DNA from: a virus
Taxonomy: Duplodnaviria; Heunggongvirae; Uroviricota; Caudoviricetes
Direction: 5' to 3' (one strand)
IMG/VR virus record: IMGVR_UViG_2859827302_000008
DNA length: 30,612 nt
How positions within the stretch are numbered: position 1 is the first letter of the stretch; each line of letters begins with the position of its first letter. A model generated the notes under the pieces. That model worked only from the letters and a program-made list of their open reading frames with translations. It did not search any database and had not been told where the DNA came from. Positions 2,824 through 10,696 of this stretch are shown here, in pieces. Both the position numbers and the translations under genes were made by a program.

Positions 2824-2915
2824 GTAAGCGTACAGCCTGAACCGTCTGGTCAGAATCTGACGAATTAGACAAAGTGGTGTCCACCAAATAAGTAGTGGGA
2901 ACCAAAGTGTCAGAT

Positions 2916-3296
2916 ATGCAGAAAAATGTGAATCCCGGCAGGCGAAAAGGCTGCCCTAATTATCCTCCCGAATTTAAACAGCAGCTCGTTGCTGCCTCCT
3001 GTGAACCCGGGATATCCATCTCAAAACTTGCTCTTGAAAATGGCATTAACGCCAATCTGTTGTTCAAATGGCGACAACAATGGCGCGAGGGAAAGCTGCT
3101 ATTACCTTCTTCAGAGAGCCCCCAGCTACTTCCTGTGACTCTCGATGCAGCTGCCGAACAGCCAGAATCGCTCGCAGAGGATCCGGAAACCCTCAGTATC
3201 AGCTGTGAGGTAACGTTCCGGCACGGGACGCTCCGCTTCAATGGCAATGTCAGCGAAAAGCTCCTGACTCTGCTGATACAGGAACTGAAGCGATGA
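2916..3296 (+). CDS. tnpA: IS66-family accessory protein TnpA
   Basis: First ORF inside the IS; start taken as ATG 2916 (ORF track uses GTG 2895). Stop overlaps the tnpB start (ATGA). Confidence 0.65.
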   Translation: MQKNVNPGRRKGCPNYPPEFKQQLVAASCEPGISISKLALENGINANLLFKWRQQWREGKLLLPSSESPQLLPVTLDAAAEQPESLAEDPETLSISCEVTFRHGTLRFNGNVSEKLLTLLIQELKR

Positions 3297-3640
3297 TCCC
3301 GTTACCTTCCGGGACCAAAATTTGGCTGGTTGCCGGTATCACCGATATGAGAAATGGCTTCAACGGCCTGGCGGCAAAGGTGCAGACGACGCTGAAAGAC
3401 GATCCGATGTCAGGTCACGTTTTTATCTTCCGTGGGCGTTATGGCAGTCAGGTAAAGCTCCTCTGGTCTACCGGCGATGGACTGTGTCTGCTGACCAAAC
3501 GGCTGGAGCGCGGCCGCTTCGCCTGGCCGTCAGCCCGGGATGGCAAAGTGTTCCTCACACCGGCACAGCTGGCGATGCTCCTTGAAGGTATCGACTGGCG
3601 GCAGCCTAAAAGACTGCTTACGTCCCTGACTATGTTGTAA
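3293..3640 (+). CDS. tnpB: IS66-family Orf2 (TnpB)
   Basis: 115-aa ORF in the conserved middle position of IS66 elements, translationally coupled to tnpA. Confidence 0.7.
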   Translation: MIPLPSGTKIWLVAGITDMRNGFNGLAAKVQTTLKDDPMSGHVFIFRGRYGSQVKLLWSTGDGLCLLTKRLERGRFAWPSARDGKVFLTPAQLAMLLEGIDWRQPKRLLTSLTML

Positions 3641-3688
3641 GCCTCTTTATCCTGGTCGACGCTGAATGAGCCTGGTAATATACCCGGT

Positions 3689-5227
3689 ATGAGCAGCTCA
3701 CTTCCTGACGATATCAATGCACTGAAACGTCTCCTTGCCGAACAGGAGGCGCTGAACCGTGCCCTGCTGGAAAAGCTGAACGAGCGTGAACGCGAAATAG
3801 ACCATCTGCAGGCACAGCTGGATAAGCTGCGCCGGATGAACTTCGGCAGCCGCTCCGAAAAAGTCTCCCGTCGTATCGCACAGATGGAAGCTGACCTGAA
3901 GGCACTTCAGAAAGAAAGTGATACCCTTACCGGTCGGGTTGACGACCCGGCCGTGCAGCGCCCGCTGCGTCAAACCCGCACCCGCAAACCGTTCCCCGAA
4001 TCACTCCCCCGCGATGAAAAACGGCTGCTGCCGGCAGCGTCATGCTGCCCGGAATGTGGAGGCTCACTGAGCTATCCGGGTGAGGATGCCGCCGAACAGC
4101 TGGAGTTGATGCGCAGCGTCTTCCGGGTTATCCGGACTGTACGTGAAAAGCATGCCTGTACTCAGTGCGATGCCATCGTGCAGGCCCCCGCGCCTTCACG
4201 GCCCATCGAGCGGGGTATCGCAGGACCGGGGCTGCTGGCCCGCGTGCTGATCTCAAAGTATGCAGAGCACACCCCGCTGTACCGCCAGTCTGAAATGTAC
4301 GGCCGCCAGGGCGTGGAGCTGAGTCGTTCACTGCTGTCGGGCTGGGTGGATGCATGCTGCCGGCTACTGTCACCGCTGGAAGAAGCGCTTCAGGATTATG
4401 TGCTGACTGACGGTAAGCTCCATGCTGATGACACGCCTGTCCCGGTGCTGTTGCCAGGCAATAAGAAAACGAAGACCGGGCGGTTATGGACCTACGTTCG
4501 TGACGACCGTAACGCCGGGTCAACGCTGGCGCCGGCGGTGTGGTTCGCTTACAGCCCGGACAGAAAAGGCATCCATCCGCAGACCCATCTTGCGGGGTTC
4601 AGTGGTGTACTGCAGGCGGATGCATACGCCGGGTTCAACGAGCTGTACCGGGATGGCCGGATAACGGAAGCCGCCTGTTGGGCTCACGCCCGCCGTAAAA
4701 TCCACGATGTGCACGTTCGCACCCCGTCAGCCCTGACGGAGGAAGCGCTGAAACGGATCGGCGAACTGTACGCCATCGAGGCAGAGATAAGGGGAATGAC
4801 GGCGGAGCAGCGCCTTGCCGAACGTCAGTTGAAAACGAAACCGCTGCTGAAATCCCTGGAAAGCTGGCTGCGTGAAAAGATGAAAACCCTGTCGCGACAC
4901 TCAGAACTGGCGAAAGCGTTCGCATACGCCCTGAACCAGTGGCCGGCGCTGACGTACTATGCAGATGATGGCTGGGCTGAGGCGGACAATAACATCGCTG
5001 AAAATGCGTTGCGGATGGTCAGTCTGGGCCGCAAAAACTACCTGTTCTTCGGTTCGGATCATGGAGGAGAGCGGGGAGCGCTGCTGTACAGCCTGATCGG
5101 GACGTGCAAACTGAACGGAGTGGAGCCAGAAAGCTACCTCCGCTATGTCCTTGACGTCATAGCCGACTGGCCGATAAACCGGGTCGGCGAACTGCTCCCC
5201 TGGCGCGTAGCACTGCCGACTGAATAA
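3689..5227 (+). CDS. tnpC: IS66-family transposase TnpC
   Basis: 512-aa ORF with N-terminal coiled-coil, CxxC…CxxC zinc-finger-like motif (CCPECGG…CTQCD) and DDE-type core, ending just inside the right inverted repeat. Confidence 0.85.
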
Positions 5228-5272: not shown

Positions 5273-6162
5273 GGCGTGGTCTGGCTGGCGAGATCAGCAA
5301 GGAAACGGGTAAATCCCTGCGTGATAACGCTGAATACGTTAATCCCTGGGCGTCTCTGCATCGTGTTCAGCAATTCCGCTTCTTTGGTATTCCAGGGCGT
5401 CAGGCTTACCGTGAACTGCGGTTGTTGGCTGGTCAGGCGGCAAGGCAGCAGGGTGACAAAAAAGCAGGTGCGCCGGTACTGGATAACCCGCGCCTTGATG
5501 CCATCCTGGCTGCTGCTGATGCTGGCTGTTTTGCCACCTACATTATGAGGCAGGGCGGCGTGCTGGTTCCTCGCAAATATCACTTGATCAGAACCGCTTA
5601 TGAAATCAATGAAGAGCCGACCGCCTATGGCGATCACGGTATTCGTATTTATGGCATCTGGTCACCCATTGCAGAAGGCAAGATCTGCACTCATGCAGTG
5701 AAGTGGAAAATGGTTCGTAAAGCCGTTGACGTTCAGGAGGCGGCAGCCGACCAGGGCGCTTGCGCCCCTTGGACTCGTGGCAATAACTGTCCCCTTGCTG
5801 AAAATTTGAACCAACAGGAGAAAGATAAATCAGCTGATGGGAACCCCAGAACGGACATTACCAGCATGGATGACAAGGAGTTGCACGATTACCTGCACAG
5901 TATGAGCAAAAAAGAGCGCCGGGAACTGGCAGCAAGGTTACGCCTGGTGAAACCGAAACGGCGTAAAGACTACAAACAGCGAATTACAGACCATCAGCGA
6001 CTGCAGCTCGTGTATGAGCTGAAGTCCAGAGGATTTGATGGCAGCGAGAAAGAGGTCGATTTACTCCTTCGCGGAGGCAGTATTCCGTCAGGAGCAGGCC
6101 TGCGTATCTTCTATCGGAACCAGCGTTTGCAGGAAGATGATCAGTGGCGGAACCTATATTAA
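5273..6162 (+). pseudogene. A: P2-type replication initiation gene A, 3' part
   Basis: Joining 2823 to 5273 restores a continuous frame (…KNIDG|[25 protein letters not shown]…); downstream ORF to 6162 continues gpA-like sequence. Confidence 0.8.
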
Positions 6163-6253
6163 TTACGCGGGTTAACAATTCGTGCTCTTAATAATACCAG
6201 GCATATCAGGCTGATGAACGTAAAAAACGTTTTACATCAGTAAGATTATTATA

Positions 6254-6273
6254 TACTGTAAATATAAACAGTG
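6254..6273. promoter_or_regulatory. LexA (SOS) box-like operator TACTGTAAATATAAACAGTG
   Basis: CTGT-N8-ACAG palindrome matching the recalled E. coli LexA consensus TACTGTATATATATACAGTA at 17 of 20 positions; sits about 40 bp upstream of the ATG at 6315. Confidence 0.55.
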
Positions 6274-6314
6274 GTTATGCATGCAGTATTGCGTGTGGTG
6301 TCATAGGAGGAAAG

Positions 6315-6503
6315 ATGCAGGACTATTTTTTGGAGTCTTTGAAGCTCCAGCGCATTGATTTTTTTCTTAAGCTTGTAGCGGCTAGTGAGTGTAGTGATGA
6401 AGAGAAGGGGCTGGCTCTGCAGTGGGTTTCTGAATTGACTGATGAACTCATGGCAAAAATCAGAACCCACGAATACAACCGCTCAATGGATGTCATCAGC
6501 TGA
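6315..6503 (+). CDS. Hypothetical small protein (62 aa), first gene of the putative SOS-regulated operon
   Basis: ORF preceded by a strong AGGAGG ribosome-binding site (6302..6307). No motif recognised. Confidence 0.5.
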   Translation: MQDYFLESLKLQRIDFFLKLVAASECSDEEKGLALQWVSELTDELMAKIRTHEYNRSMDVIS

Positions 6504-6513
6504 GGTGACTTTT

Positions 6514-6747
6514 ATGCGCATTGAAATAATGATCGATAAAGAGCAGAAGATTAGCCAGTCTACCCTGGACGCTCTTGAATCCGAGCTTTACCGCAATCTG
6601 CGCCCTCTGTATCCCAAAACGGTAATTCGTATCCGCAAAGGTAGCTCTAACGGTGTGGAACTTACCGGATTGCAACTGGACGAAGAAAGAAAACAAGTGA
6701 TGAAAATTATGCAGAAGGTGTGGGAAGACGACAGCTGGCTGCATTAA
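6514..6747 (+). CDS. dinI: DinI-family protein (damage-inducible protein I-like)
   Basis: Translation MRIEIMIDKEQKISQSTLDALESELYRNL…KIMQKVWEDDSWLH resembles E. coli DinI in length (77 aa) and conserved positions. GAGGTGA ribosome-binding site 6 nt upstream of ATG 6514; the ORF track's upstream start at 6442 is in the same frame. Confidence 0.8.
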   Translation: MRIEIMIDKEQKISQSTLDALESELYRNLRPLYPKTVIRIRKGSSNGVELTGLQLDEERKQVMKIMQKVWEDDSWLH

Positions 6748-6882
6748 GAAACGTTGCTGGCGTCTGAACTAGCTTCTGGCGTCAGCAAGGTTGAACAACG
6801 AGCCCTTGCGAGGCGTTAGCTCTGTAGTGCATGTCTATGCTGCATGAGATCGCATGATCGTTTGAGGATCGTTTTTGCTAAG

Positions 6883-6908
6883 GCCCGCCAGAACTGGCGG
6901 GCTTTTGC
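6883..6908 (+). terminator. Rho-independent terminator after the dinI-like operon
   Basis: GC-rich hairpin GCCCGCC-agaact-GGCGGGC followed by TTTTG. Confidence 0.55.
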
Positions 6909-6969
6909 GTAGATCATGCAGGTGCATGAAAACCACTACATAAAGCGGGCAGGCGTGGCGGGGATACGA

Positions 6970-6997
6970 TTGCGCGCTAGGTATAAGTGTGTAAAAT
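6970..6997 (+). promoter_or_regulatory. Possible sigma70 promoter of the ATPase/HNH operon (-35 TTGCGC, -10 TAAAAT, 16-bp spacer)
   Basis: Hexamers read by eye about 45 bp upstream of ATG 7040; not supported by any other evidence. Confidence 0.25.
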
Positions 6998-7039
6998 AAT
7001 TCCAAAATAAATCATCACTAATGAAGTGAGAGGGTAATA

Positions 7040-8689
7040 ATGTTAGTCAAGAAAAATAAAAATTATAGTTTATATTTTTTAATTACAAATAATCAACAGA
7101 TATCTGATTCTGGTAATTATATAAAAATAGTCCCATCAAGAAGCGATTGGAATGATTTTGGATATTTGAGTAGAGTCGAAATATCTATTTTTAATAAAAA
7201 AGAGTGTAAGGATATAATTTCACTGAATGGTTATATTGGTTTTTTGAATTCAGAGGAGGAACGAAATGGAAAAGCAGAACTGATAAGGCGAGTGAAAAAA
7301 AAGGAAGAATCTAATTTAAAGGATGAGGGGTTTAATGATTATTTTGTCATGCTTCAGGATATGAATAATTATCGAAGACTAGTAAGATTTTTTGGGGTGA
7401 ATGAATCCAAATATATATTAAATTTCATTAATGATGTTGTTTCTAAGAAAAGTGACGCTAGTGCAGAGAATTTGAGGAAAAAAGCAATCTCTTCTGATAT
7501 CTTTAATAAATCTTTCATTAGAGAGTCTGAGTCGTATTTTACTTTCAAAAATGCAGGAACAGTTCTTTCCGGTATTCAATATGAGGAGTTGGGTAATTTA
7601 TCACAGCACATCAAGATTAGCTATTCGAATAAAGTTAATGAAGAAGATGTATCTTATGTTTTTAATTTTGATCACGAGCATGATTTACCAAAAAGAATTT
7701 CCATAATTATAGGCGAGAATGGTGTAGGAAAAAGCCAAACGCTTAGAGAAATCGCATTGGCTGCGATTAAAGGAAAGGATAATTTGGTGGCTGTAGTTGA
7801 TTCTAACGGTGTGAGCATTGAAGAACGAATTCAAATTAGTAGGCTCATTGCTTTTTCTCCAACAAATGAAAGTAAGTGTTCATTTCCAACCGATAAAAGA
7901 ATAAAATCATTGATATGGTACAAAAGATTGACTTTAAATCGTGAATCAAAATCCAAATTAAACTTGAATGATTTAATAGTGCAACTAGCGAGGAGTAACG
8001 ACGCTATCGGCTATAATCAAAGGTGGAATATATTTGTTGATGCACTGAGTGTTCTAAATAGTAACAACGATTTAGTAATCAAATGTGGCGGTGAAAATTC
8101 ACCATTTGTTAAATTAAATGAGCTTAATTCTCGAGGCGAAGAATCTAGACTATCATTATATTCTGAAATTATTCTCTCTGGCGAGCCTTTGAGGCTTATT
8201 GAAAATAAATGTTACCCTTTGAGTAGTGGGGAAATATCGTTTATTAAGTTTTGTGTACAAGTCTGTTTGTATATTGAGAATGGGACTCTTCTATTAATAG
8301 ATGAGCCAGAAACACATCTCCATCCTTCATTTATTAATAAATTTATGGCATTGCTTGATAATTTATTAGAAAAGACAGGCTCTTCAGCTATCATAGCAAC
8401 GCATTCGGTTTATCTTGTTCGGGAGGTTTTTAAGGAGCAAGTGACAATACTCAGAAGACGAGATGATGGGGTAATTGTTAGCGAAAAACCGAGATTGAGT
8501 ACTTTTGGGGCGAATATAGGAAATATCTCATATTTTGTTTTCGGTGAGAGTGAACCAACTCAAATTTTAAATAAAGTAAAAAACAATATAATTGCAAAGA
8601 ATATGTCTTGGGATGATGTTGAATCTAAATATAGCGAGGACTTATCACTTAATGTATTAACTGCGTTGAGAAATGAAATGGGCAATTGA
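7040..8689 (+). CDS. ABC-type (AAA_15/AAA_21-like) ATPase with unassigned ~220-aa N-terminal domain; candidate defence ATPase (PtuA-like)
   Basis: 549-aa ORF with GAGAGGG ribosome-binding site. Walker A GENGVGKS (aa ~225-232), signature-like LSSGE (~395), Walker B LLLIDEPE (~417-424), H-loop ATHS (~453). Gene is strongly AT-rich. Confidence 0.85.
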   Translation: MLVKKNKNYSLYFLITNNQQISDSGNYIKIVPSRSDWNDFGYLSRVEISIFNKKECKDIISLNGYIGFLNSEEERNGKAELIRRVKKKEESNLKDEGFNDYFVMLQDMNNYRRLVRFFGVNESKYILNFINDVVSKKSDASAENLRKKAISSDIFNKSFIRESESYFTFKNAGTVLSGIQYEELGNLSQHIKISYSNKVNEEDVSYVFNFDHEHDLPKRISIIIGENGVGKSQTLREIALAAIKGKDNLVAVVDSNGVSIEERIQISRLIAFSPTNESKCSFPTDKRIKSLIWYKRLTLNRESKSKLNLNDLIVQLARSNDAIGYNQRWNIFVDALSVLNSNNDLVIKCGGENSPFVKLNELNSRGEESRLSLYSEIILSGEPLRLIENKCYPLSSGEISFIKFCVQVCLYIENGTLLLIDEPETHLHPSFINKFMALLDNLLEKTGSSAIIATHSVYLVREVFKEQVTILRRRDDGVIVSEKPRLSTFGANIGNISYFVFGESEPTQILNKVKNNIIAKNMSWDDVESKYSEDLSLNVLTALRNEMGN

Positions 8690-9554
8690 AATGAATAAAT
8701 TAAAAAGACCTGTTTTTAAAGATTATTCTGCATTTAAAAAACTATCTGCAAATAAGAGATTAAAACATCATTCTGTTCTGAATGGACAGGATACATTTAT
8801 ACTTAATGCATATAGATCGTACATAAAGAATAAAGGGTATCTTAATGTCAATTCTTGTGGCGTATTGAGTAACAATATTGCTGAAGCTTTGAGATATTAT
8901 TATAACAATCCCGCAAAGTGTTTATCTATAATTGATGATATAAGAGCAGCTAATTCTAACTCTCTATGTCCAATGTGTGGTTCAATGCATAGCGGGACTT
9001 TGGATCATGTTTTACCCAAGGAAAACTATCCAGAATTTTCTTTATTCACTAAGAATTTGGTTCCTGCTTGCAAATGTAATACTTTCAAAAGTACTACTAT
9101 AGCTAATTCTGCAGGCCATCGGATGCTGCATCCATATTTTGATAATATATTAAAACAAAGATTAATATGTGCTAATTTTTCTAAATTAGGGCGAACACCT
9201 ACAATTGATGTAAAAATCATAATTGACCCAATGTCACCAGAATATAACAATGTTAAGTATCATCTTGATAATGTTGTTATCAAGAATAATATTAAGGGGT
9301 ATTTGTCTGAACAATGGGAGTCGTTTTACTTATATCCTGAGCTTGTTATTAGAGGACTGAATAAGAGTCTTTCTACTTATAGCGATGTATATGAGTTGTT
9401 GACTCGCGAGTTGTTGCTGTTGGATGAAAAACATAAAGGTAAAAATAATTGGAATTCGGTTTTTGTAGCTGGGTTAATTCGACCTGATGTGATTAGGTGG
9501 ATACTCTGTGAATTACATTTAGGTAACAGAAGTCCAGACGGTCGTCTCATATGA
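8673..9554 (+). CDS. HNH-family nuclease (His-Me finger with Cys4 zinc site); candidate defence effector (PtuB-like)
   Basis: 293-aa ORF overlapping the ATPase stop by 17 nt (alternative start ATG 8691 directly after the stop). Motif CPMCGS…GTLDHVLPKEN…NLVPACKCN…H matches the CxxC…DH…N…CxCN HNH layout. Confidence 0.8.
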   Translation: MKWAIEMNKLKRPVFKDYSAFKKLSANKRLKHHSVLNGQDTFILNAYRSYIKNKGYLNVNSCGVLSNNIAEALRYYYNNPAKCLSIIDDIRAANSNSLCPMCGSMHSGTLDHVLPKENYPEFSLFTKNLVPACKCNTFKSTTIANSAGHRMLHPYFDNILKQRLICANFSKLGRTPTIDVKIIIDPMSPEYNNVKYHLDNVVIKNNIKGYLSEQWESFYLYPELVIRGLNKSLSTYSDVYELLTRELLLLDEKHKGKNNWNSVFVAGLIRPDVIRWILCELHLGNRSPDGRLI

Positions 9555-9661: not shown

Positions 9662-10696
9662 TTAAGTAGCTAGTTTATAACTATCAAATTTAACAATGTT
9701 CTCACTTACCAATTTATTTATTTCCATCATTCTTTTTTGTAACGGTATTAACTCGTTACGTACAAACACCAGGCTCGCCTTCTCCACATCCCCAAACCCC
9801 CCGACATTATTAGGCATAATCCCCATCATTTGCGGTGGCACACGATGCGCCGCCATCATGTCATCCCGGCTCACGTTCTTGATGTTCAGAAACTCATCCT
9901 TCGCCGCGACTTCTGACAACGGGATGATCTGAAGCCCGTCCTTTTTGCCGTTAGGCGAGTACATAAACAGATTGCGGAAGTTACCTGGTCCTTTGGCGCT
10001 TTTCATCGCATTGCGGAGGTTGTTCACATCCTCCTGGTTTTGCGCGGCATCGGTCATGTACATGATGAAGCCTGCATGACTGCCGTTAATGTAATACTAT
10101 CGGCGGAACAGCGTGGCGGACTCGTTGAGCAGGGCTGACGGAATGGCAGAAAGGTAACCTGGCAGGCCGTAGATCTCTTGGTTGATGTCCGGTTCCATCA
10201 GATGAAAGATGCTTCCTTTCGTGAACTGATACGGCTGCGTGGTCATGCCGTATTGCACAAACCAGTAGGTATCCAGGTCTAATCCGCGTCGGGTGTATTT
10301 TGCCAGAGCAGGCTCAAGAGCGATGACCTCTCCGAACCGGTTTGTGCGTTTCTCCAGGTAAGCGTTACCAAATACCAGATAATCCTGCACAAAACGTGAA
10401 AAAGCCTGCTGGCTGAGCAGCGGGTGAGGGATGTAGGTACTGATCAGAATGTTGCATTTCACCGCAATTGGTGAACTGTGATGCACGGCGGCGCGGAAGG
10501 TGCGCGCCAGTCCGTCAAAACTCACTGGCGGCTCATACCAGCGATCTGTCTGTACGCATTCCACATAGTCCAGTAGTTCACGGCGGTCCAGAACCGGAAC
10601 GGGATCGCCGAAGCTGAATGCTTCGGCTGAAGTCTGGTTTTTATGCTGGGTCTGTTTCGTCGCCGCAGCGCGGTTCTTCTTACTCTTTCCCATCAA
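9662..10696 (-). pseudogene. Q: P2-type portal protein gene Q with one in-frame amber codon (TAG at 10097..10099)
   Basis: Two minus-strand ORFs (10097..10696 and 9662..10063) share one frame and are separated only by the TAG plus 11 sense codons. Combined length (~344 codons) fits a P2-type portal. Confidence 0.85.

Follow-up and report, generated by a model that had tools for sequence, protein, structure and literature searches.

Between positions 6254 and 6747 of the 30.6-kb window (the whole stretch of viral DNA that was analysed, 30,612 nucleotides), the plus strand carries a LexA operator (SOS box) at 6254..6273 followed by two short genes, one encoding a 62-aa protein (6315..6503) and one encoding a 77-aa DinI-family protein (6514..6747), with a long hairpin and an intrinsic terminator further downstream on the same strand. 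Just upstream of this operon lies an open reading frame (5422-6162) that forms the C-terminus of a P2 gpA-type replicase (phrog_91; PF05840 on the N-terminal fragment), and the order of gene A followed by tum is the same in the window, coliphage 186, PSP3, Fels-2 and E. coli HS. Over 801 bp around the operon, the sequence is 94-98% identical to many Peduoviridae, among them Salmonella phage Fels-2, with which 90% of these 801 bp align at 96.9% identity, and 1,145 of 5,426 complete E. coli genomes (~21%) contain the tum region. With a probability of about 0.88, we read the locus as a tum operon, the SOS operon of a P2/186-group phage of Fels-2/PSP3 type, in which a small antirepressor, and not the DinI-family protein, would be the main effector.

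The operator sequence TACTGTAAATATAAACAGTG is the sole site in the 30.6-kb window that lies within three mismatches of the consensus TACTGTATATATATACAGTA, and such a site occurred in 0 of 100 dinucleotide-preserving shuffles. It matches the consensus at 17 of 20 positions with a perfect CTGT-N8-ACAG core, and it scores 24.7 bits with a LexA position weight matrix that is approximate, being built from ~20 E. coli operators. The operators used to train this matrix have a median of 21.2 bits and a minimum of 12.8 bits, and the next-best site in the window, at 9.4 bits, falls below the weakest of them. In its CTG-N10-CAG palindrome with an AT-rich spacer and, by this approximate matrix, in its quality, the 6254-6273 site is thus like the real operators of an E. 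coli-type LexA regulon. A second LexA box at 6269-6288 was considered as a full operator and rejected, as its score of 9.1 bits is under that of any real operator and its CTG arm is missing.

The left arm of the operator, TACTGT (6254-6259), doubles as a putative -10 element, and a putative -35 hexamer, TTTACA (6231..6236, plus strand), was read by eye at a spacing of 17 bp, in the position equivalent to that of the 186 p95 promoter. A consensus promoter scan returned no site at its threshold for this SOS promoter, with TACTGT matching only 3 of 6 positions, and the promoter is therefore assigned by analogy with 186 p95, for which the left arm of the LexA box is likewise annotated as the -10. 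Promoter and operator are identical among the window, E. coli HS and Fels-2. The original prediction had placed a near-consensus SOS box at these very coordinates, overlapping the likely -10 region; the box stands as unique in the window and unmatched in the shuffles, and the overlap would follow from the comparison with p95.

Downstream of the operator, a Shine-Dalgarno sequence, AGGAGG (6305..6310, read from the sequence), stands 4 nt ahead of the ATG at 6315, and this ATG opens a reading frame of 62 codons plus stop that ends at 6503, in agreement with the well-initiated small ORF that had been predicted here. The encoded protein differs by a single residue from ECHS_RS04495 of E. coli HS and from STM2728 of Fels-2 (98% identity), and belongs to phrog_698. 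It has no match in Pfam, NCBIfam or PADLOC, and a PDB sequence search with a profile of its family found nothing. An AlphaFold2 model folds it as a two-helix hairpin (mean pLDDT 88.7), for which a Foldseek search of the PDB returned generic helical hairpins only (best E=1.3) and was uninformative. In public resources, RefSeq gives the gene product as a 'hypothetical protein' or, wrongly, as a 'levan regulatory protein', phrog_698 is listed with unknown function, and there is no Pfam family.

Pairwise BLASTP gave no alignment of the 62-aa protein with either 186 Tum or PSP3 TumA, and its homology to Tum therefore rests on profiles and intermediate sequences. Residues 1-70 of 186 Tum match phrog_698 at E=6.7e-6, with positions 7-44 aligned to positions 7-44, and a further family, phrog_8554, is matched both by the 62-aa protein (2.4e-8) and by 186 Tum (3.3e-12). 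In a phmmer search of a 120-sequence set, the 62-aa query found, at 2.5e-5, proteins closely related to the N-terminal domain of 186 Tum, and the 58-aa intermediate P0156 joins the two proteins, matching the 62-aa protein with E=7e-7 and 186 Tum with E=0.01 (values scaled to a 1.8e9-protein library), with both alignments ungapped and in register. An hhalign comparison of strictly separated, low-diversity families again aligned the proteins ungapped and in register (4-43 to 4-43) with modest significance (P=0.004, probability 8%). Common to the 62-aa protein and the N-terminal half of 186 Tum are a conserved cysteine at the turn and a helix of the form [IL]AL-x-[WL]-[IV]-[AS]-E-[IL]. Profiles and intermediates thus place the 62-aa protein as a homologue of the N-terminal, antirepressor half of 186 Tum, at an identity of ~20% that is detectable only with profiles. 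Its match to phrog_1993, the other subfamily to which PSP3 TumA belongs, is weak (E=0.002).

Genetic evidence from the closest relatives gives this assignment its functional content. ECHS_RS04495 is the E. coli HS gene that was deleted as 'tum' (Ortiz de Ora et al. 2025, PMC12055606), and in that work mitomycin C no longer caused lysis and virion formation by the P2-like prophage DuoHS when the cells carried either an in-frame delta-tum mutation or a lexA(Ind-) allele, whereas an SOS reporter behaved normally in delta-tum E. coli HS (PMC12055606). In Fels-2 and PSP3 the tum gene is split by a stop codon, and the upstream PSP3 gene is described as the antirepressor (Lemire et al. 2011, PMC3121763), an assignment given there as a personal communication and hence second-hand. 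186 Tum itself acts by binding CI, according to the summary of Shearwin 1998 in PMC3121763. The Fels-2-type 62-aa protein may bind CI in the same way; direct binding has been shown for 186 Tum alone, and the Fels-2 type contributes the delta-tum genetics. A homology search with the 62-aa protein, proposed at the outset as a check, thus returned a TumA-type antirepressor, 98% identical to ECHS_RS04495, and the need for that E. coli HS tum gene in prophage induction (PMC12055606) bears out the expectation that the operon is relevant to induction control. We consider it very probable that the 62-aa protein is the split-tum antirepressor, of TumA type, of the Fels-2/PSP3-like relatives of coliphage 186.

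The second gene, tumB (77 codons plus stop, 6514..6747), begins with an ATG at 6514, 10 nt past the tumA stop, and its Shine-Dalgarno sequence GAGGTG (6502..6507) overlaps the tumA stop codon and lies within a weak hairpin. This hairpin (6486-6515, -9.4 kcal/mol) is not significant (z = -1.5), so that translational coupling of tumA and the DinI gene is inferred from the 10-nt spacing only; the close linkage of the two frames that had been predicted is nonetheless evident in that gap and in the placement of GAGGTG over the stop. A 'terminator-like' scan match at 6492-6509 was rejected as a terminator, since it sits inside this same junction, where the hairpin has z = -1.5. The identification of the second gene as a DinI homologue is secure: the protein scores 81.3 bits against the Pfam DinI family PF06183 (cut-off 24.2) over the whole of its 63-position profile, covers positions 71-148 of the 151 of phrog_189, and aligns over residues 1-75 with PDB 1GHH, the solved structure of E. 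coli DinI, at E=2.7e-6. W70, E71 and W75 are invariant in the DinI alignment, and the C-terminus carries the acidic W-E-x-x-D-x-W helix. The protein is 100% identical to its counterparts in Fels-2 and E. coli HS, 78% identical to PSP3 TumB, 41% identical to the C-terminal half of 186 Tum and 30% identical to E. coli DinI. Against the NCBIfam equivalog for chromosomal DinI it reaches 42.7 bits, under the 111-bit cut-off, and it is therefore a member of the DinI family and not an orthologue. The chromosomal gene of E. coli is also LexA-regulated and falls in the same Pfam family, with the window protein aligning at full length to 1GHH, but the two differ in that the proteins share only 30% identity and that the window gene is phage-borne and coupled to an antirepressor. 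E. coli DinI binds RecA filaments and modulates LexA/UmuD cleavage.

The original prediction had described a RecA-modulating protein with an unknown partner, both expressed under LexA. Placement of the operon under LexA holds; the partner is not unknown, being TumA and the main effector. The two parts can be ranked from diverged relatives of the locus, a set of 20 loci from ~15 genera that encode proteins sharing ~21-28 identical residues (~35-45%) with the 62-aa protein. Counting a LexA box only where the CTG...CAG core is intact and at least 16 of 20 positions match the consensus, a box lies 14-36 nt upstream of the start codon in 17 of the 20 loci, comparable sites in the ~60 kb of flanking sequence number 0, and in one of the exceptions the mutated box occurs together with a truncated ORF. 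A recognisable DinI gene follows in 2 of the 20 loci and in none of the other 18. The retention of the box in 17 loci, set against that of DinI in 2, marks antirepressor and box as the conserved core and DinI as an optional accessory, and with TumA as main effector and DinI absent from 18 loci, the earlier emphasis on the RecA-modulating protein inverts the hierarchy. At the Silvania locus the order is gpA, box, tumA, and then terminator and cargo, and at the Serratia locus a 186-type CI adjoins the tumA-like gene.

These data also weigh on a different account of the operon, implicit in the original prediction, in which the 62-aa protein would assist or regulate its DinI-like neighbour and the operon would work on RecA filaments and the SOS response of the host, not on the phage repressor. 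The tight linkage of tumA and the DinI gene across a 10-nt gap would suit such a partnership, as would the fusion of both parts in one polypeptide in 186. Non-polar dinI deletions in the Gifsy prophages had no effect (PMC3121763). A cofactor of DinI would, however, hardly be expected in 18 of 20 related loci that keep a tumA-like gene and its LexA box with no DinI gene, and induction is lost, with a normal SOS reporter, when the 98%-identical orthologue alone is deleted in frame (PMC12055606). That the homologous 186 Tum works through CI binding, as Shearwin 1998 is summarised in PMC3121763, argues in the same direction, and we regard a DinI cofactor as very improbable.

Read as a tum operon, the locus can be compared in detail with systems already described. 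It resembles that of coliphage 186 in that p95, the LexA operator and tum directly follow the replication gene A, with the box forming the -10 (TACTGT), in that an N-terminal antirepressor module precedes a DinI-like module, and in that the target would be a non-cleavable CI of 186 type. It differs in that the modules are fused in the 146-aa Tum of 186 and form two ORFs in the window, although 186 also makes DinI separately, as shorter DinI-only products from internal starts that include an internal GTG preceded by AAGGAGG. The gap between box and start codon is 41 nt in the window compared with 18 nt in 186, and 186 carries orf97, whereas the window has no orf97-like gene. Fels-2, with STM2728/STM2727, and the DuoHS prophage of E. 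coli HS, with tum and a DinI-like gene, have essentially the same locus as the window; those prophages are intact whereas the window prophage is decayed, and in Fels-2 and E. coli HS a further gene (STM2726 / RS25360) separates DinI from the terminator, a position left empty in the window. The annotation of the Fels-2 DinI gene notes a similarity to PSP3 TumB. In Salmonella treated with the mutagen MX, STM2727 was induced 5.5- to 14.8-fold (PMC2225428), and STM2726-2728 behave as one operon in mutagen-treated cells (PMC2225428).

PSP3 shares the split tumA/tumB arrangement with a LexA box, and differs in the subfamily of its TumA (phrog_1993), while its TumB retains 78% identity to the window protein. 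The PSP3 record annotates tumA as 'similar to 5' end of 186 tum; UV induction of prophage' and tumB as 'similar to dinI and 3' end of 186 tum'. A further parallel is provided by the Salmonella lambdoid prophages Gifsy-1/2/3, in which a LexA box drives an operon of dinI, an antirepressor (gfoA/gftA/gfhA) and irsA against a non-cleavable repressor (PMC3121763); there dinI comes first, reversing the order, and both the phage type and the repressor family are different.

The arrangement of the locus is consistent with the following mechanism. In an undamaged cell, LexA bound at 6254-6273 would occlude the -10 of the promoter just after replication gene A. Following DNA damage, RecA-stimulated self-cleavage of LexA would release the SOS promoter, and a single transcript would yield two small proteins, the 62-aa TumA and the DinI-family protein. 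TumA could then bind the 186-type CI, a non-cleavable repressor, and dislodge it from its operators, switching on the lytic genes, a step suggested by the biochemistry of 186 and the genetics of DuoHS. TumB, by analogy with E. coli DinI and the 186 annotation 'modulates SOS induction', may bind to RecA filaments and so adjust how strong or how long-lasting the SOS signal is. Damage-induced, LexA-dependent expression of the window operon is likewise to be expected from its orthologues in Fels-2 (PMC2225428) and DuoHS (PMC12055606).

The prophage in which this module resides is itself decayed. The dam gene (697-1302) is truncated by an adjoining IS3-type transposase (1-654), gene A is interrupted by an IS66 element (2895-5227) that leaves one part at 1299-2840 and the other at 5422-6162, and the portal gene carries an AAG to TAG nonsense mutation at ~10097-10099 relative to the 99.8%-identical intact prophage of strain UPEC-245U. 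With gene A split, dam truncated and the portal interrupted, the window prophage cannot complete induction. A CI repressor gene was looked for in the 30.6-kb window and none was found, the left part of the prophage being cut by the IS at 1-654; the CI of intact relatives shares 33% identity with 186 CI (E=7e-38). Given a defective prophage and no CI in the window, the operon is probably a still-intact remnant.

How far this decay extends to the module is a separate matter. The module could be an inert relic, intact in sequence but with no target or consequence, in a prophage that has lost its immunity region and can neither replicate nor package. The IS3-type insertion with the dam truncation, the IS66 element in gene A, the TAG in the portal gene and the missing CI gene all point that way, and we hold this to be a genuine possibility, though one short of even odds. 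Promoter, box and both ORFs are nevertheless undamaged, with a DinI protein 100% identical to that of functional phages; CI may sit just upstream of the window; and an antirepressor is able to work in trans, on prophages other than its own (PMC3121763). An inert relic would, moreover, concern the present activity of the window copy and not the identity of the module, and is compatible with the operon being a tum operon. The window copy of the SOS module may thus still be functional.

The tum operon is followed by a boundary that is conserved in its relatives. Immediately past the DinI gene, a long hairpin of 43 nt (6750..6792, plus strand) marks an empty position, slot 1, at which the SOS operons of Fels-2, E. 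coli HS and 186 each include one more gene. Beyond it, an intrinsic terminator was identified by folding at 6880..6909 (plus strand, coordinates approximate), with the sequence AAGGCCCGCCA-GAAC-TGGCGGGCTTT followed by TGCG and with an 11-bp GC-rich stem. This terminator (~6880-6909) is likely the 3' end of the SOS operon and the positional equivalent of t95b, the terminator of the 186 p95 operon. Fels-2 and E. coli HS share the terminator block, with differences in the loop only, and the conserved block extends to ~6989, with variable cargo from ~6990. In Fels-2 and E. coli HS this block comes after the extra gene STM2726 / RS25360, which defines two variable slots, slot 1 within the SOS operon and slot 2 past the terminator. 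The slot-1 position is occupied in 186 by orf97, and a test for homology between Fels-2 STM2726 and 186 orf97 found none. Slot 2 of the window (7040-9554) holds an AAA ATPase and an HNH endonuclease, which PADLOC assigns to PDC-M01A/B with a weaker match to Septu PtuA; this two-gene PDC-M01 cargo is present in 3 of 5,426 complete E. coli genomes. A search of 6100-7100 against Rfam gave no RNA family at E<=1.

An interplay of the operon with these neighbouring defence genes had been suggested, and nothing that we found supports it, a conserved intrinsic terminator lying between operon and cargo. The most concrete form that such a connection could take is read-through of the terminator, by which the SOS promoter would also drive the PDC-M01A/B cargo (7040-9554) and make the defence damage-inducible. 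In 186, p95 transcripts partly pass the terminator t95a into orf97, which according to its annotation blocks 186 infection when expressed, and STM2726-2728 of Fels-2 form one damage-induced operon (PMC2225428); in the window, a consensus sigma-70 promoter scan of 6748-7040 was negative and the U-tract of the terminator is short (UUUU-G). The co-transcribed gene of Fels-2 and E. coli HS, however, lies upstream of the terminator, in slot 1, whereas the window cargo lies downstream, in slot 2; the 11-bp GC-rich stem also argues for termination, and an AT-rich region with a plausible TAAAAT -10 ahead of the cargo gene could supply a promoter of its own. On balance we consider read-through into the cargo unlikely.

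More broadly, the module could be more than a relic in either of two ways, acting (a) in trans as a damage-triggered inducer of co-resident prophages or satellites of Fels-2/186 type, or (b) through read-through that renders the rare Septu-like PDC-M01 cargo SOS-inducible. This wider proposal is speculative, and we put it forward with considerable doubt.

The tum operon itself is a correct but ordinary module, and its tumA-type identity is already known. The LexA-tum-DinI module of 186-like phages has been familiar since the 1990s. Descriptions of its split form in Fels-2 and PSP3 date from 2002 and 2011 (Lemire et al. 2011, PMC3121763, through which the 2002 work is cited here). As a discovery the locus is therefore of little importance, and its practical value lies in annotation. 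Public annotation lags the literature for a gene that is carried by ~21% of complete E. coli genomes, and naming the 62-aa gene as a Tum/TumA antirepressor would improve predictions of prophage inducibility. The layout described here also clarifies the P2-type defence hotspot, which has two variable slots, one within the SOS operon and one past the operon's terminator. If read-through into the second slot were to occur, this 'hotspot' would be a damage-regulated expression site.

Two separate variable slots were recognized 3' of the DinI-family gene (window 6748-6990, with comparison loci L001, 3599-4561, and L005, 25053-26000). Slot 1 is part of the SOS operon and precedes the conserved intrinsic terminator (6880-6909), and slot 2 lies past the terminator block. 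Slot 1 is occupied by STM2726 in Fels-2 and by RS25360 in the E. coli HS prophage; in the window it holds only a 43-nt hairpin at 6750-6792 and is otherwise empty. The same position in phage 186 is occupied by orf97, which has no homology to Fels-2 STM2726.

At the opposite end of the operon, an additional LexA half-site-like motif was observed at 6269-6288, 10 nt downstream of the operator, with the sequences ATGCAGTA (window), ATACAGTA (E. coli HS) and GTACAGTA (Fels-2). In a MAFFT alignment this motif falls on the right arm of the LexA boxes of 186 and PSP3. Its score as a 20-mer is 9.1 bits, third in the window and lower than any real operator. The motif might be a leftover of an ancestral box or might act as a weak auxiliary site.

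Beyond the close relatives of this prophage, 18 of 20 loci encoding diverged TumA-like proteins in other Enterobacterales (L007-L026; for example L009, 1501-1686, and L018, 518-1719) carry a LexA box without a DinI gene, and Serratia marcescens MSU97 has a compact order of CI, tumA-like gene, ogr-like gene and portal. Some records name the product of the TumA-type gene (6315-6503) a 'levan regulatory (domain) protein', a label found, for instance, in the UniRef entry for P0018 and in Klebsiella phage ST340-VIM1phi10.2. Nothing seen here supports this name, which is probably a propagated annotation error.

The early region of the window prophage is interrupted at two places. An IS3-family (rve) transposase fragment (1-654) adjoins a D12 Dam methylase gene truncated at its 5' end (697-1302), and a complete IS66-family element with three ORFs (2895-5227) is inserted in replication gene A, breaking it into an N-terminal piece of 513 aa (1299-2840) and a C-terminal piece of 246 aa (5422-6162). 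Relative to the intact, 99.8% identical prophage of E. coli UPEC-245U, one codon of the minus-strand portal gene (9662-10696), at ~10097-10099, has changed from AAG to TAG; this nonsense mutation divides the gene into two ORFs and is a third inactivating lesion in the prophage.

The defence cargo comprises a gene for a 549-aa AAA_21-type ATPase (7040-8689) and a second gene encoding 293 aa (8673-9554), whose RefSeq relatives are annotated as HNH endonucleases. In PADLOC the cargo is matched best by PDC-M01A/B, a candidate system (E=3e-55 and 1e-33), and less strongly by Septu PtuA. It is rare, occurring in only 3 of the 5,426 complete E. coli genomes. The non-coding block around the terminator (6830-6990) is conserved and strongly structured, with z = -4.3 for 6745-6930, and has no match in Rfam. 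About 80 nt of this block, 3' of the terminator, are kept in Fels-2-like prophages irrespective of cargo, and this conserved stretch may anchor the recombination that swaps cargo.
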